Shown: positions 52,116 through 61,691, counted from the stretch's first letter. The stretch: 64,000 nt of DNA from Candidatus Limnocylindrales bacterium (GCA_036392215.1 DASVYJ010000027.1:15637-79636); one strand, 5' to 3'. Numbers and translations are program-made. The notes: generated by a model from the letters alone, not told the origin.

Positions 52116-52130
52116 GGGCCCATCCTACCA

Positions 52131-52160
52131 AACCTTGCCGTTTACGTAAAGGTTATGGTT
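52131..52160. promoter_or_regulatory. Perfect 10-bp palindrome TTTACGTAAA flanked by AACCTT / AAGGTT, about 20 nt upstream of the MerR start: candidate MerR operator in a divergent promoter region
   Basis: Seen in the sequence. Confidence 0.4.
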
Positions 52161-52233
52161 CTAGCTGTCGGCGTCCGGACGGGCTGCCTGTCCGTCGGGG
52201 CGCGCGCTCTGCCGAGCCCCGCCGAGGCGCCGC

Positions 52234-52268
52234 CCTGTCGCCTGTCGCCTGTCTCCTGTCTCCTGTCA
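52234..52268. repeat. Five tandem heptamers CCTGTC(G/T/A): CCTGTCG CCTGTCG CCTGTCT CCTGTCT CCTGTCA
   Basis: Seen in the sequence, between the MerR gene and the promoter of the downstream plus-strand operon. Confidence 0.6.
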
Positions 52269-52283
52269 ACCATCGCTTGTCCA

Positions 52284-57988: not shown

Positions 57989-58009
57989 GCCGGCGACCGG
58001 GGGCGTCCG

Positions 58010-59224
58010 ATGTCGATCGGTGACGCCCTGCTGCGAGCCAACCCCCGCTATGAGCTCGTCCTGCTCGACCGGCTCGGGCAGGACGAGCGCTCGCTCGTGG
58101 AGGAGCAGGCCGGCGACGGTCCGCCGCCGTACGGTCTGCTCCGCCCGGCCCGTCCCGACGCCCTCGAGCCGAGGGTGGTTTCGACGGACACGGCCCTCCT
58201 CTTCCTGACGCTCCAGGAGCCCGGGCCCTGCCCCGCCTACGTGCGCCGGGGCCTCGGCGGCCGGCTCGACAGCACGCTGGGCCGACTGGTGGTGGAGGGG
58301 ATCCTCGAGGTCGCCGGCCAGGACGGCTTCCGGAGCGGCCTCGGGGCCTGGCTGCCGATGGCTCCCGCGGGCGACGGCGCGTCGAACCGCAACGCCTCTC
58401 TCTCGGTCGAGGCCCTCCGCTACGGGGCGGCGCTGCTCACCTTCGCCGACCTGCCGCCCGAGTTGCTGGCCGCCCGGCTCTACATGTACGGCCGAGCGCC
58501 CGCGACGACCGCCCTCCGCCGCAGGCTGCCGTCGAACGCCGCGGTCGCCGACTGGCTCGGCCTCCGGTCAGCGGGCCTCGGCTCGACGCTTCGATCGGCC
58601 TGGCGGGAGGCTCGACCGGCGGAGGGGTCGCCCTGGCGCAGCTGGAGCCCGCGCCGGTCCCTGCCGCATCGGCCGCATCCTGTCTCGTTCAAGCTGTACA
58701 TCAGCCCGACTCTTGAGACCACGGCCCGGGCTCTCGCTGCGGCGGCGAGCGGTCTCGCCGACGCTGAGGGCTGCCTCGGGTTCAAGATCGGTCGCTCGGT
58801 CGAGGGCCTGCTCCGGCCCGACAAGATGGTCGCCTACTTCGAGACGCTCGACGCCTTGAACGAGGGGGCCGCCGCCGTCCAGGAGGCGGCCGCCGGGTGC
58901 CAACCGCAGGGCGTTCCGTTCACGGCCGCGGTCACCGGCGACGGCCTGCTCTCGTGGGCCATCGATCCCCCGCGCCGCCTGCGCGACGGCGGGCCGGGCC
59001 GGATGAGCTGGCGGTCGTGGGTGACCGGGCGGCTGGCCGACCACCTGCTCTCGAGCCGCCTGGCCGCGAGGCAGCTGCCGCCTGCAGACCCCGCGCCCGG
59101 AGACCCCGCGCCGGTCGACCCGCCGGCGTGGCAGGCCGCCCTGGCCCGGCTCGCCCTCGACGGGGTGGACCCGGCGACCTGGGTCCCGGACCCGGCCCTC
59201 TTCGACTACGCGGCGGCGGGGTAG
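58010..59224 (+). CDS. Hypothetical protein (404 aa), no recognised domain
   Basis: The reading frame has consistent codon bias. The N-terminus MSIGDALL resembles the start of the next gene (MSIGEPMLL). Confidence 0.55.
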   Translation: MSIGDALLRANPRYELVLLDRLGQDERSLVEEQAGDGPPPYGLLRPARPDALEPRVVSTDTALLFLTLQEPGPCPAYVRRGLGGRLDSTLGRLVVEGILEVAGQDGFRSGLGAWLPMAPAGDGASNRNASLSVEALRYGAALLTFADLPPELLAARLYMYGRAPATTALRRRLPSNAAVADWLGLRSAGLGSTLRSAWREARPAEGSPWRSWSPRRSLPHRPHPVSFKLYISPTLETTARALAAAASGLADAEGCLGFKIGRSVEGLLRPDKMVAYFETLDALNEGAAAVQEAAAGCQPQGVPFTAAVTGDGLLSWAIDPPRRLRDGGPGRMSWRSWVTGRLADHLLSSRLAARQLPPADPAPGDPAPVDPPAWQAALARLALDGVDPATWVPDPALFDYAAAG

Positions 59225-59228
59225 CGCG

Positions 59229-61691
59229 ATGTCGATCGGGGAGCCGATGCTCCTGCCGCCGGACGTGATGATCGTCCCCGTCGAGTCGCTCCCGGCCGAC
59301 GTCCGGACGAGGCTCGACCACAAGCCGGGCGACCATGCCCTCACCCGGCCGCTGACACGGACCGCCTCCACGATCGTGGATGCGAACACCGCCCGGCTCC
59401 TCGGATCGTTCCAGACGCCGACGCGGATCGTCGACGCGATCATCGCCTTCGCGGCCGAGCACGATCTCGATCCCCGGGAGACGCTCGACCGCTCCTATCC
59501 GGTCCTCCGCGAGCTCCTCGCCGGCGGGCTGCTCGTGCCCGCGGGGTCAGAGCTCGCCCGCCCCATCGCCGAGTCCGCCCTGCCCGACGGCACCGCCGTG
59601 GGGCGCTTCCGCGTGGACCGGACGGTGCACCTCATCATCGACACCCAGCTCTGCCTGGCGCACGGTGACGGGCCCGACGAGACCGAGGTCGCCCTCAAGG
59701 TCGCCCGGCCCGGTCACGAAGTCCAGTTGCGGGCGGCGCTCGCCCACGAGGCGTCGATGCTGCGGCGCCTCGACGGCCTCTCGACGCCGCGGCTCATCGA
59801 GCTCGGCGAAGCGGACGGCCGGCCCTTCCTGGCCATGACCTGGCAGCGGGGGAGCAGTGCGGACCTCGTCGCCGCCGAGCTGCGGGGCCTTCCTCCGGCC
59901 GACGGCCGGCCCGCCCTGGTCAGGCTGTGTCGGCGCATCCTCGAGGCCTACGCTGCGATCCACGGTCGGGGGGTCCTCCACGGCGACGTCCACCCCAACA
60001 ACGTCCTGGTCGGCCCGGACGGCGAGGTGACGGTCATCGACCTGGGGCTGGCCGCCGGCGAAGGGGAACGCGGCACGCCGCGCGGCGGCGTGGACTTCTT
60101 CATGGAGCCCGAGTCGGCGAGTGCCCAGGCGGCCGGCCGTCGCACGGCCCCGCTCACCGGCGCCGGCGAGCAATACAGCCTCGCCGCCCTGCTCTACCTG
60201 CTGCTGGCCGGCGGCCATACTCATGCCTTCTCCCTGGAGCCGGCGGCGATGCGCCGACAGCTGCTCGAGGAGCCGCCCTTGCCGTTCGCCCGGCACGGGG
60301 TGACGGGCCTGGAGCGGATCGAGGCGGTGCTGGGCCGTGCCCTGGCGAAGGATCCAGCGGAGCGATTCCCCGACGTGGCCGCCCTGGGCGCGGCGTTCGA
60401 GGCGGCGGCCGCGCGCGACGTGGTCGCGGACGGCGAGACGGGGAGAGCTCGGGGAGCGCCGGGCGCGCTCGCCACGGCGGACGCGGCGAGCGGGGCGCCG
60501 CGGCGGAGCCGCGGCGAGGCCGACCGGCTGCTGGACGAGACACTCGAGCGGCTGGGCCCGGACGGCCCGCTCCTGACCGCGGAGCTCGAAGCGCCACGGG
60601 CCTCTGTCAATCTCGGCGCAGCGGGCATCGCCTACGGCCTCCTGCGCGTCGCCATGGCCCGCGACGACGGCGCGCTGCTCGGCCTGGCGGACCTCTGGTC
60701 CATGAAGGCCCTGGCCTCGCTGGGGACCGAGGAGGCCTTCGTCAACGCCGCTCTCGACATCACCCCAGCCACCTTCGGCAGGACCGGCCTCCACCACAGC
60801 CCGACCGGCGTCTACCTGACCGAGGCGCTCATCGCCGGCGCCCGCTGGGACCCCGCCAGCCAGGCCGCCGCCGTCGACGCGTTCCTCCGGGCGACCGAGG
60901 AACCGGGACCCGAGCGGGACATCTCGTTCGGCCGCAGCGGCATCCTCCTGGCCGCCGCCATGGCGCTCGAGGCGCTTCCGACCGACTCGCCGCGAGGGGT
61001 CGCGGTGCGCGAGCGCGGCGACGCCATCGCCGCGGGCCTCCAAGCTGAGCTCGATCTCTGCGAGCCGCTCGATTCCCGGCCCCGCGCCGATACCCGAGCG
61101 GACGAACGGTTCGTCGGCGTGGCCCACGGCTGGGCCGGGTTCCTGTACGCCCAGCTGCGCTGGGCCCAGGCGACCGCGGCCCCTGTCGCCGAGGGGGTCG
61201 CCGCCCGCCTCGCCGAGCTGCGCTCGCTGGCCAGGCCGCTCGGGCGCGGCCTCGCCTGGCCTCGGGAGCGCGGCGAGTCAGATGACGGCGCTCTCGTGGG
61301 TACCTGGTGCAACGGGGCTGCCGGCCACCTCGGGCTCTGGCTCCTCGCGTCGCGCCTGGTCGACGGCGGATTCGCCCGCACCGCCGAGGCGGCCGCGTGG
61401 ACCGCGCTCGAGGCCTCGCCGACGCCCGGGGACCTCTGCTGCGGGCTCGCCGGTCGAGCCTACGCCCTGCTCGGCCTCCACCGGGCCAGCGGGGAGCGGA
61501 TCTGGCTCGCCCGGGCCCGAGCCCTGGCCGACCAGGCCGCGTCGATCGTCCGCGAGCAGGCGCTCCGCGCGGACAGCCTCTACAAGGGCACCGTCGGCGT
61601 CGCCGTCCTCGCCGCCGATCTCAGCAGGCCGGCCGAGGCCGCCATGCCCTTCTTCGACCGCGAGCCGTCGAGCGTCGCTCTCAGGGACTGA
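59229..61691 (+). CDS. Ser/Thr protein kinase – LanC-like cyclase fusion protein (lanthipeptide-synthetase-like class III/IV architecture without a recognisable lyase domain)
   Basis: Kinase: VALKVARPG (beta3 Lys), HGDVHPNNVLV (catalytic loop), VIDLG (the DFG-equivalent). LanC-like: GAAGIAYGLL, HGWAGFLYA, WCNGAAGH, LCCGLAGRAYALL. The region N-terminal to the kinase is only about 120 aa. Confidence 0.8.
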   Translation: MSIGEPMLLPPDVMIVPVESLPADVRTRLDHKPGDHALTRPLTRTASTIVDANTARLLGSFQTPTRIVDAIIAFAAEHDLDPRETLDRSYPVLRELLAGGLLVPAGSELARPIAESALPDGTAVGRFRVDRTVHLIIDTQLCLAHGDGPDETEVALKVARPGHEVQLRAALAHEASMLRRLDGLSTPRLIELGEADGRPFLAMTWQRGSSADLVAAELRGLPPADGRPALVRLCRRILEAYAAIHGRGVLHGDVHPNNVLVGPDGEVTVIDLGLAAGEGERGTPRGGVDFFMEPESASAQAAGRRTAPLTGAGEQYSLAALLYLLLAGGHTHAFSLEPAAMRRQLLEEPPLPFARHGVTGLERIEAVLGRALAKDPAERFPDVAALGAAFEAAAARDVVADGETGRARGAPGALATADAASGAPRRSRGEADRLLDETLERLGPDGPLLTAELEAPRASVNLGAAGIAYGLLRVAMARDDGALLGLADLWSMKALASLGTEEAFVNAALDITPATFGRTGLHHSPTGVYLTEALIAGARWDPASQAAAVDAFLRATEEPGPERDISFGRSGILLAAAMALEALPTDSPRGVAVRERGDAIAAGLQAELDLCEPLDSRPRADTRADERFVGVAHGWAGFLYAQLRWAQATAAPVAEGVAARLAELRSLARPLGRGLAWPRERGESDDGALVGTWCNGAAGHLGLWLLASRLVDGGFARTAEAAAWTALEASPTPGDLCCGLAGRAYALLGLHRASGERIWLARARALADQAASIVREQALRADSLYKGTVGVAVLAADLSRPAEAAMPFFDREPSSVALRD

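Follow-up and report, generated by a model that had tools for sequence, protein, structure and literature searches.

A probable lanthipeptide-type gene cassette with a predicted stand-alone lyase in a Candidatus Limnocylindrales genome and in many other bacteria

Where might a protein that fuses a Ser/Thr kinase to a LanC-like cyclase, and that has no phospho-Ser/Thr lyase domain, find the lyase that it lacks, and which of the genes around it belong to the same system? The question is raised by a stretch of 64,000 nucleotides (nt) from a metagenome-assembled genome (MAG) of a Candidatus Limnocylindrales bacterium, phylum Chloroflexota (GCA_036392215.1, DASVYJ010000027.1:15637-79636), hereafter called the window. 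A preliminary description, made from the sequence alone, had grouped six consecutive plus-strand genes at 52116-61691 as a candidate locus for a ribosomally synthesized peptide with post-translational modifications (RiPP) related to lanthipeptides. From sequence comparisons and structure predictions, we consider it probable that the conserved unit is smaller, namely a lanthipeptide-type RiPP cassette of three genes at 57605-61691, to which a SARP regulator and a repeat array are attached in this genome. The three genes encode a precursor, a predicted stand-alone lyase and the kinase-LanC protein.

Since the G+C content of the window is 72-77%, genes were called by G+C at third codon positions (GC3), together with Pfam and NCBIfam scans and the gene calls of an independent assembly. 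Relatives were sought by scanning 185,579 species genomes (GTDB) with patterns derived from the lyase, which gave 293 genomes. From these genomes 80 loci were fetched; all counts of loci given below refer to them, except that some tblastn screens of related loci took in 82.

The predicted lyase and the RRE-kinase-LanC protein

The proposal that the missing lyase is supplied by the 404-residue protein encoded directly upstream of the kinase-LanC gene (58010-59224, plus strand) had been made in the preliminary description, which had envisaged an OspF/SpvC- or HopA1-type fold, and it is supported by a predicted fold of the HopA1/LanY type and by a conserved catalytic set. Sequence methods are silent on this point. 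The protein has no family match in Pfam and NCBIfam scans, and Pfam HopA1 is not matched at threshold; among 33 homologues, sub-threshold Pfam matches to RamC_N were found in 3 and to HopA1 in 3. More than 600 homologues were retrieved at first pass, and every one of them is annotated as hypothetical. The AlphaFold2 model of the protein has a pLDDT of 91, and lyase domains are among the matches listed for it, namely those of ThurKC (13.2), of the 8car synthetase (13.0) and of SalKC (11.1).

In the model, an N-domain that resembles a RiPP recognition element (RRE; residues ~1-110) is followed by a helical linker and by the predicted lyase core (residues ~198-355), which holds K228, Y230, K259, R269 and Y276. 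Across 83 sequences of the family, K228-L-Y230, K259, R269, D271 and Y276 show little or no variation. The catalytic set of CaoY and SpvC has been defined experimentally, with the CaoY residues validated by mutation (PMC9486802). The spacings from K259 to R269 (10 residues) and from K259 to Y276 (17 residues) equal those from K219 to R229 and from K219 to Y236 in CaoY, and K228, which lies 31 residues before K259, occupies the position of CaoY R187 and SpvC K104. Y230 takes the place of the catalytic His of OspF and LanL; class V LanY likewise does without this His.

The partner enzyme is an 820-residue protein encoded at 59229-61691 (plus strand), only part of which resembles a lanthipeptide synthetase. 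LanL (NF038150) is its best NCBIfam family (E 2.6e-50), although the score of 171.6 bits compares with a cut-off of 650 bits. The match covers model positions 188-805 of 851 and runs from residue 124 of the query onward; since the alignment begins at model position 188, it leaves out the lyase part of the model. The LanKC model (NF038151) reaches 88.2 bits against a 575-bit cut-off and matches in the kinase region only, and a match to the LanM model TIGR03897 covers the LanC part alone. Where LanL and LanKC have their lyase domain, residues 1-105 of the 820-residue protein (domain at 59229-59543) are predicted to form a PqqD-like winged-helix RRE of three strands followed by three helices. In Pfam, the N-domains of the lyase and of the kinase-LanC protein give weak matches to PqqD, ThcOx and DUF7782 at most. 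The fusion had been described as lacking a phospho-Ser/Thr lyase domain, which it does. A cryptic lyase in its first ~150 residues, which had been kept in view as an alternative, is ruled out, as this region is an RRE by predicted fold.

The predicted lyase itself appears to carry a second recognition domain. Its N-terminal ~100 residues align in register with the RRE of the 820-residue protein (28% identity; hhalign E 0.0017, probability 15%), and the full lyase model also matches RRE-containing enzymes, with TigE (7.0) followed by MibB, NisB, TbtB and TglI. Because of this alignment and these model matches, we regard the two N-domains as probably paralogous recognition domains.

The kinase domain (residues ~125-400; 59601-60428; Pfam Pkinase, E 2e-10) has sequence matches in the PDB to StkP, PknB and PknE, and its match to APH is marginal by comparison (E 5e-5). 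All 70 family members compared have its residues K157, H251-x-D253, N258 and D271-(F/L)-G. In the LanC-like cyclase domain (residues ~455-812; 60591-61691; Pfam LANC_like, E 3e-16), the general acid His633 and Cys694 occur in all 70 sequences, and Cys737 and Cys738 in 69 of 70, the remaining sequence having a gap. Cys694, Cys737 and Cys738 are the predicted zinc ligands. Given the C737-C738 pair in the alignment, the third predicted ligand is Cys rather than His, and a CCG motif replaces CHG. ProcM, too, has a Cys-Cys-Cys zinc site with a CCG motif. This motif of ProcM-type LanMs has been linked to substrate promiscuity (PMC13509491).

Precursor, lyase and RRE-kinase-LanC genes hold together in related genomes, in ~70-74 of the 80 loci. 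In 74 loci the gene that immediately precedes the lyase gene encodes a precursor homologue, detected by a jackhmmer search seeded with the peptide from the window. A full-length kinase-LanC gene is present in 72 loci, in 70 of which it begins no more than 200 nt downstream of the lyase gene, and in 4 more loci it is cut off by the end of the contig. The loci span more than 10 phyla: Chloroflexota, Actinomycetota, Acidobacteriota, Nitrospirota (Nitrospira), Bacillota (Bacillus), Pseudomonadota (Ralstonia, Amaricoccus), Cyanobacteria, Planctomycetota, Gemmatimonadota, Armatimonadota and WPS-2. Cultured carriers of the cassette include Micromonospora halophytica DSM 43171, Kribbella pittospori NRRL B-24813, Nocardia beijingensis NBRC 16342, Conexibacter stalactiti KCTC 39840, Bacillus pfraonensis and Amaricoccus macauensis DSM 101730. 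An exhaustive profile search for the lyase family gave 1,573 representatives at 50% identity; the length is uniform at ~390 residues, with nearly all of the best 150 of these at ~360-470 residues. Throughout, annotations of the members go no further than "hypothetical protein" or "LanC family protein".

Several loci carry variants of the cassette. In Microbispora sp. NBC_01389 (CP109552.1; locus L001, 9332-11808) the cassette is degenerate, with a frameshifted precursor gene, an intact lyase gene and a kinase-LanC protein shrunk to 212 residues, whose RRE runs straight into the final ~130 residues of LanC. On chromosome 3 of Ralstonia pickettii RAL3 (L039, 10001-14467) no more of the kinase-LanC gene than its first ~113 codons, which encode the RRE, follows the lyase gene, and an inverted full-length kinase-LanC gene lies just downstream, which amounts to a local rearrangement or duplication of the cassette. 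Five Acidobacteriota/Thermoanaerobaculia loci (L047, L057, L058, L059 and L063, at ~15.4-18.3 kb) contain several extra stand-alone Ser/Thr kinase genes, and upstream kinases are present in 26 loci. In the same acidobacterial/Thermoanaerobaculia loci, extra short precursor-like open reading frames (ORFs) lie several kb away and encode MSFxSRDLMIDVLP..., an acidic stretch and ...LRRQLRE. L058 also has a second, partial copy of the kinase-LanC gene at 4559-5908.

The precursor family, its regulator and the proposed chemistry

The first gene of the cassette (57605-57988, plus strand) encodes a LanA-like precursor of 127 residues. Its GC3 of 0.97 and the gene call of the independent assembly both indicate a coding sequence. 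The precursor begins with the motif MEFEARRLRVQLP (residues 1-13), continues with a core (residues 14-91) that contains 8 Cys, 18 Thr and 3 Ser, and ends with an amphipathic helix that starts with ELPLLREQLEGQLKEV (residues 92-127). The Cys residues stand at positions 14, 22, 27, 35, 42, 49, 57 and 69. The preliminary description had taken this Cys/Thr-rich ORF for the substrate, with a Cys every 5-12 positions and each Cys preceded by Ser or Thr. The spacing of 5-12 residues is as described, and the second feature holds roughly: 7 of the 8 Cys have a Ser or Thr 1-4 residues upstream, not always adjacent. That the ORF is a substrate gains support from the co-conservation of its family directly upstream of the lyase gene.

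The family as a whole has the same three-part construction: both ends are conserved, the C-terminal one as a coiled coil, and the Cys/Thr-rich core between them is hypervariable. The N-terminus follows the invariant pattern M-(A/P/S)-F-x-x-(K/R)-x-L-x-(V/I)-x-(L/I/V) and comes in two flavours, RLRVQLPCG and DLMINVLP. The cores have a median length of 58 residues and a median of 7 Cys (range 2-20); their composition is 11.8% Cys, 9.7% Thr, 5.5% Ser, 11.7% Gly and 10.3% Pro, and internal repeats are common. The C-terminus is a Cys-free amphipathic helix or helical hairpin with the pattern L..L(R/K).QL...L.E.E, and the median total length is 128 residues. Two or three tandem copies of the precursor gene are found in 9 of the 80 loci. 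Thus, the locus and its relatives combine precursor genes beside enzyme genes, conserved recognition regions, a hypervariable core and a predicted RRE, which are the general marks of a RiPP system.

Many cores are built from tandem oligopeptide repeats, such as CYASGGG repeated 5-6 times, CTPSPP(D/N) repeated 4-5 times, CTGHQTHP(Q/L)E repeated 6 times, or runs of C(T/S)(G/N/R)C. Such cores are encoded in L025 (3731-4276), L032 (9298-9840), L040 (9315-9833), L034 (9526-9924), L066 (9172-9846) and L081 (8382-8903), and further examples are found in L024, L049 and L063. This pattern suggests that core diversity arises by repeat expansion. In the precursor of the window, residues 72-91, past the last Cys, form a Thr/Glu-rich stretch, TIWYTETLTETGTETIREVT, with 8 Thr and no Cys partner, which may be a region of dehydration only or of phosphorylation, or a linker.

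Upstream of the precursor gene lies a gene for a SARP/BTAD regulator of 257 residues (56694-57467, plus strand), also called at 257 residues in the independent assembly. It matches Pfam BTAD (E 1.4e-13), and a weak NCBIfam AfsR match spans both an OmpR-type DNA-binding domain and the BTAD domain. The stop codon of this gene is overlapped by an array of (G/C)GTGACG-like heptamers (57441-57546, plus strand; a candidate SARP binding site and promoter region), which occupies the end of the SARP gene and the 137-nt gap before the precursor gene. The heptamers recur every 11 nt, with starts at 57441, 57452, 57463, 57474, 57485, 57507 and 57518, and the direct-repeat spacings in the array are 11 and 33 nt. 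When both strands of the whole window were searched for GGTGACGN4GGTGACG with up to 2 mismatches, all 5 matches fell at 57441-57524. The GGTGAC motifs are invariant in an alignment with the closest Chloroflexia loci (L003, L004, L006 and L018). Classical SARP operators, such as those of ActII-ORF4, DnrI and AfsR in Streptomyces, are heptameric direct repeats at 11-nt spacing. The regulator therefore has both features expected of a SARP, an OmpR-type winged helix joined to BTAD and an 11-nt-spaced heptamer array as candidate binding site.

With the SARP of the window as query, a SARP gene accompanies the cassette in 8 of 82 loci. Its position is identical in the five closest Chloroflexia loci, and it lies nearby in L021, L077 and L082, as well as in L030, whose more divergent SARP was found by Pfam. 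This distribution indicates that the SARP is lineage-specific. The identification of a SARP-family activator in the preliminary description stands, and it is plausibly the activator of the cluster in this lineage; the actinobacterial setting implied for such a cluster does not, since the host is a Chloroflexota MAG and not a member of the Actinobacteria.

These elements suggest a sequence of five steps, all of which we infer from folds, motifs and synteny. The SARP would bind the 11-nt-periodic heptamers and switch on an operon of precursor, lyase and synthetase genes. The N-terminal strand motif of the precursor (M-x-F-x-x-K/R-x-L-x-V-x-L) would dock on the RRE of the 820-residue enzyme; the probably paralogous N-domain of the lyase may offer this motif another docking site, and the C-terminal amphipathic helix could serve as a second handle. 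The Ser/Thr kinase domain would then phosphorylate Ser and Thr residues of the Cys/Thr-rich core, and the HopA1/LanY-like lyase would eliminate the phosphate to leave dehydroalanine or dehydrobutyrine, using K228, K259, R269, Y276 and, in the place of the OspF His, Y230. Finally, the presumably zinc-dependent LanC domain, with its predicted Cys3 site and CCG motif, would add Cys residues of the core to the dehydro residues, giving lanthionine or methyllanthionine rings.

Relation to known lanthipeptide classes

Lanthipeptide classes are defined by the architecture of the synthetase, and six are recognised. By its predicted architecture, the cassette is a hybrid of classes IV and V: it has a kinase and a cyclase like those of class IV, its lyase stands alone as in class V, and RREs are added, which enzymes of classes III and IV are stated not to possess.

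Among the closest known systems is class IV LanL, for example VenL, whose steps of phosphorylation, elimination and Michael addition are also those predicted for the cassette. LanL and the 820-residue protein share a central kinase with Lys, HxD...N and DFG. They differ at the N-terminus, where LanL has an OspF-like lyase domain and the 820-residue protein a predicted RRE, and in the cyclase, whose zinc ligands are Cys, Cys and His in LanL, while the corresponding residues here are H633, C694 and C737-C738, the ligands being predicted from sequence. A separate HopA1/LanY-type lyase and long precursors with a C-terminal coiled coil further set the cassette apart from LanL. With the class V systems (LxmKY, CaoKY and the TvaC/D pairs of thioamitides), by contrast, the cassette shares the predicted stand-alone HopA1-like lyase. 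However, LanK of class V is APH-like, whereas the cassette has a Pkinase-type kinase fused to LanC; and class V has a kinase-fold LanX and no LanC, whereas the cassette has a canonical LanC cyclase domain. The lyases differ as well, in that the position of CaoY Arg187 is Lys in the cassette, as in OspF and LanL, and the cassette lyase has an extra N-terminal RRE-like domain.

Class III LanKC enzymes (ThurKC, CurKC, RamC) are single proteins of three domains, unlike the cassette with its separate lyase and its candidate zinc ligands; the LanKC cyclase lacks zinc ligands, and LanKC enzymes bind the leader without an RRE (PMC10604976, PMC13504147). ProcM-type LanM enzymes resemble the cassette in their Cys3 zinc site (CCG) and in their many hypervariable substrates with large conserved recognition regions, but they dehydrate with a lipid-kinase-like domain, have no separate lyase, and are homologous to the cassette in the LanC domain only. 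Class VI (LanKCb/LanKCt) resembles the cassette in that its lanthionine synthetase contains a kinase and departs from the canonical arrangement of the lyase. It is, however, a single protein with truncated lyase and cyclase and very short substrates, reported only in Streptococcus (PMC10676316), whereas the cassette has a full-length cyclase, a separate lyase of 404 residues and a precursor of 127 residues, and occurs in many phyla. No Pfam match to LanB (PF04738/PF14028) or LanM dehydratase (PF13575) domains was obtained in the genes of 51570-63258. Judged by its domains and predicted folds, the cassette is a member of none of classes I, II, III, IV, V and VI, in agreement with the earlier statement that the gene content is not that of a canonical class I-V cluster. 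The chemistry would be familiar and the arrangement apparently new.

A family of this kind could have been overlooked in earlier surveys. Walker et al. placed every protein with LanC and Pkinase domains in class III/IV and dropped candidate precursors longer than 120 residues (PMC7268733). Both this binning and this limit would hide the cassette family.

We raise, as a possibility that is somewhat less likely than not, that the cassette represents a seventh lanthionine-forming class present in many phyla, in which an RRE-kinase-LanC(CCG) enzyme works with an RRE-HopA1 lyase that stands alone. Small proteins, and not leader-core peptides, would be its substrates, recognised through an N-terminal strand and a C-terminal coiled-coil follower that is possibly retained, and its products thioether-stapled "lanthiproteins" made without a dedicated protease or exporter. 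The cassette joins class IV and class V modules, RREs and a ProcM-like Cys3 site, and with 293 species-level genomes it is widespread and not a curiosity. If the cassette works by the five steps proposed above, the family is a large and unexplored source of polycyclic peptides or proteins, whose cores contain as many as 20 Cys. It would also form an intermediate in evolution between dehydration of the class III/IV kind and that of class V, and it would offer a naturally split, RRE-guided kinase/lyase/cyclase toolkit for engineering. Precursor mining with a 120-residue cut-off and a model that admits N-terminal leaders only would miss these substrates.

Alternative explanations and neighbouring genes

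Several observations weigh against a lanthipeptide-type cassette. When the ORFs flanking the cassette in the 80 loci were clustered, the precursor family alone was conserved across most of them, and no conserved protease, transporter or immunity gene was found. With no protease or transporter conserved beside the cassette, the proposed steps do not account for maturation and export, and the product may be something other than a classical secreted peptide. The precursors, with their median of 128 residues and a C-terminal coiled coil that looks folded, are atypical of lanthipeptide precursors. The lyase has a Tyr where OspF and LanL carry the His that acts as catalytic acid, and its activity is deduced from fold and motifs; more generally, the structures are predictions, and the case for every member of the cassette is built on folds, motifs and synteny. 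The element that the RRE binds is a proposal, and the hhalign probability for paralogy of the two N-domains is low (15%). Finally, the apparent novelty is to be read within the literature that was searched: no description of the cassette architecture was found in open-access papers and bioRxiv.

Among the alternatives, the one that survives best would extend the functional unit to the larger block of the preliminary description, in which two large proteins encoded upstream, and perhaps the MerR and MFS proteins, would have the modified peptide as their target or partner, for example in its tailoring, release or export or in immunity. We regard this as unlikely. The two large proteins do exist: one has 944 residues and is Zn_dep_PLPC-like (52452-55286, plus strand; Pfam Zn_dep_PLPC, E 2e-7; identical in the independent gene calls), and its partner has 420 residues and a His-rich N-terminus (55283-56545, plus strand). 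The larger block is favoured by L030, a distant Anaerolinea MAG in which SARP, PLC-like protein (26% identity), partner (27% identity), precursor, lyase and kinase-LanC are encoded together at 5399-13582. This six-gene block has 48-50% GC between flanks of 58-70% and looks like a horizontally acquired island, and it is unlikely that two rare modules became neighbours by chance in two genomes. However, L030 is the one related locus in which the pair adjoins the cassette; the pair does not occur in the remaining 79 of the 80 genome loci. It is also found on its own, as a PLC-like gene (900-920 residues) followed by the partner gene (424-454 residues) in L084, a MAG (8001-12034), and in L085, Arthrobacter livingstonensis (317-4414). 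There the His-rich protein has homologues of 72% and 59% identity, respectively, and neither locus has lanthipeptide genes nearby. The PLC-like protein, moreover, has fungal homologues.

The arrangement of regulatory elements also argues against the larger block. The PLC-like pair lies behind a 336-nt intergenic region (52116-52451) between divergent MerR and PLC-like genes, while SARP-type repeats occur only upstream of the precursor gene. The MerR regulator (51570-52115, minus strand) and the two MFS genes (48617-50107 and 50104-51573, both minus strand) are indeed present upstream and divergent, as described, but they are not co-conserved with the cassette: MerR was found in 0 of 82 related loci, and MFS matches are sporadic and have no fixed position. 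An unrelated 487-residue ORF on the minus strand was likewise found in 0 of the 82. The six-gene block is therefore not a general unit, and we consider the PLC-like/His-rich pair to be probably a separate two-gene unit outside the conserved cassette.

A second alternative accepts the three genes and doubts the rings: the kinase and the lyase would introduce dehydro residues into a small protein, and LanC would add a small-molecule thiol, in the manner of LanCL, or a dehydrated or phosphorylated protein would itself be the intracellular end product. This would account for the lack of a conserved protease or exporter and for protein-sized precursors with a coiled-coil domain, and the clade of class IV (kinase-linked) LanC proteins includes the human LanC-like proteins (Walker et al., PMC7268733). 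Against it stand the cores, which are so rich in Cys, with Ser and Thr interleaved, that they bear the signature of intramolecular lanthionine; predicted RRE domains and multiple tandem hypervariable precursors are RiPP hallmarks as well. We thus judge a system without intramolecular rings to be improbable.

Far less probable still is a module that has nothing to do with peptide natural products and serves in Ser/Thr-kinase signalling or in defence against phages. The kinase domain does match the PADLOC models PD-T4-6, Mad6 and MkoA and NCBIfam MADS6/PglW, and extra Ser/Thr kinases lie near the acidobacterial loci. However, these model matches concern the generic kinase domain only, PADLOC has no match for the precursor, the lyase, the PLC-like protein or the His-rich protein, and RiPP chemistry is indicated by the folds of LanC, RRE and lyase, taken with the Cys-rich substrates. 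A canonical class IV LanL broken by a frameshift, a mis-assembly or a wrong start codon, with its lyase as a separate ORF, would suit the mere 4 nt between the two genes and the metagenome-assembled contig, but this explanation is effectively refuted; the two genes are neighbours in 70 loci, and the N-terminus of the 820-residue protein is a predicted RRE.

As to the window at large, GC3 frame analysis and the Pfam and NCBIfam scans showed the earlier inventory of genes and strands to be correct, with one boundary amended: the first plus-strand gene had been placed from 52116, which merely adjoins the MerR start codon (the MerR gene ends at 52115), and its ATG is at 52452. The MerR gene was identified by Pfam/NCBIfam, and both MFS genes by Pfam and GC3. 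A promoter scan of 51900-62200 found a single sigma-70-like site, TTGACG-17 nt-TAGCAT at 52284-52312, in the region between the MerR and PLC-like genes; the terminator part of the same scan found none that was convincing. An ORF at 48039-49997 (minus strand) was considered as the second upstream gene and rejected, because it is in the wrong frame (G+C of 0.96 at first and 0.60 at third codon positions); the real gene there is the MFS gene at 48617-50107. Upstream of the MFS genes lie genes for a multicopper oxidase of two or three domains (46645-48030, plus strand), a GAF-HisKA_3 histidine kinase (45077-47074, minus strand) and a LuxR-type response regulator (44397-45101, minus strand). Because the oxidase and histidine kinase ORFs overlap by ~430 nt, the start codon of one or both has probably been misplaced.

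The PLC-like gene and its partner have overlapping or adjacent stop and start codons. The fungal homologues of the PLC-like protein show 50-56% identity over 95% of its length and come from Fusarium, Aspergillus, Drechslerella, Dactylella, Trapelia and Hyaloscypha, a distribution that suggests that the gene has passed between bacteria and fungi. No Pfam family is matched at threshold by the partner; its homologue in L030 has a weak match to CARDB. Its His-rich N-terminus, MSDERHEHHEHGHHEHGHHEHHEHDCHDEHHHHCH (55283-55390), is not kept in the 72%-identical homologue of L084 and is kept only in part in that of Arthrobacter, and it is a lineage-specific, metal-binding-like tail that precedes a Pro-rich linker.

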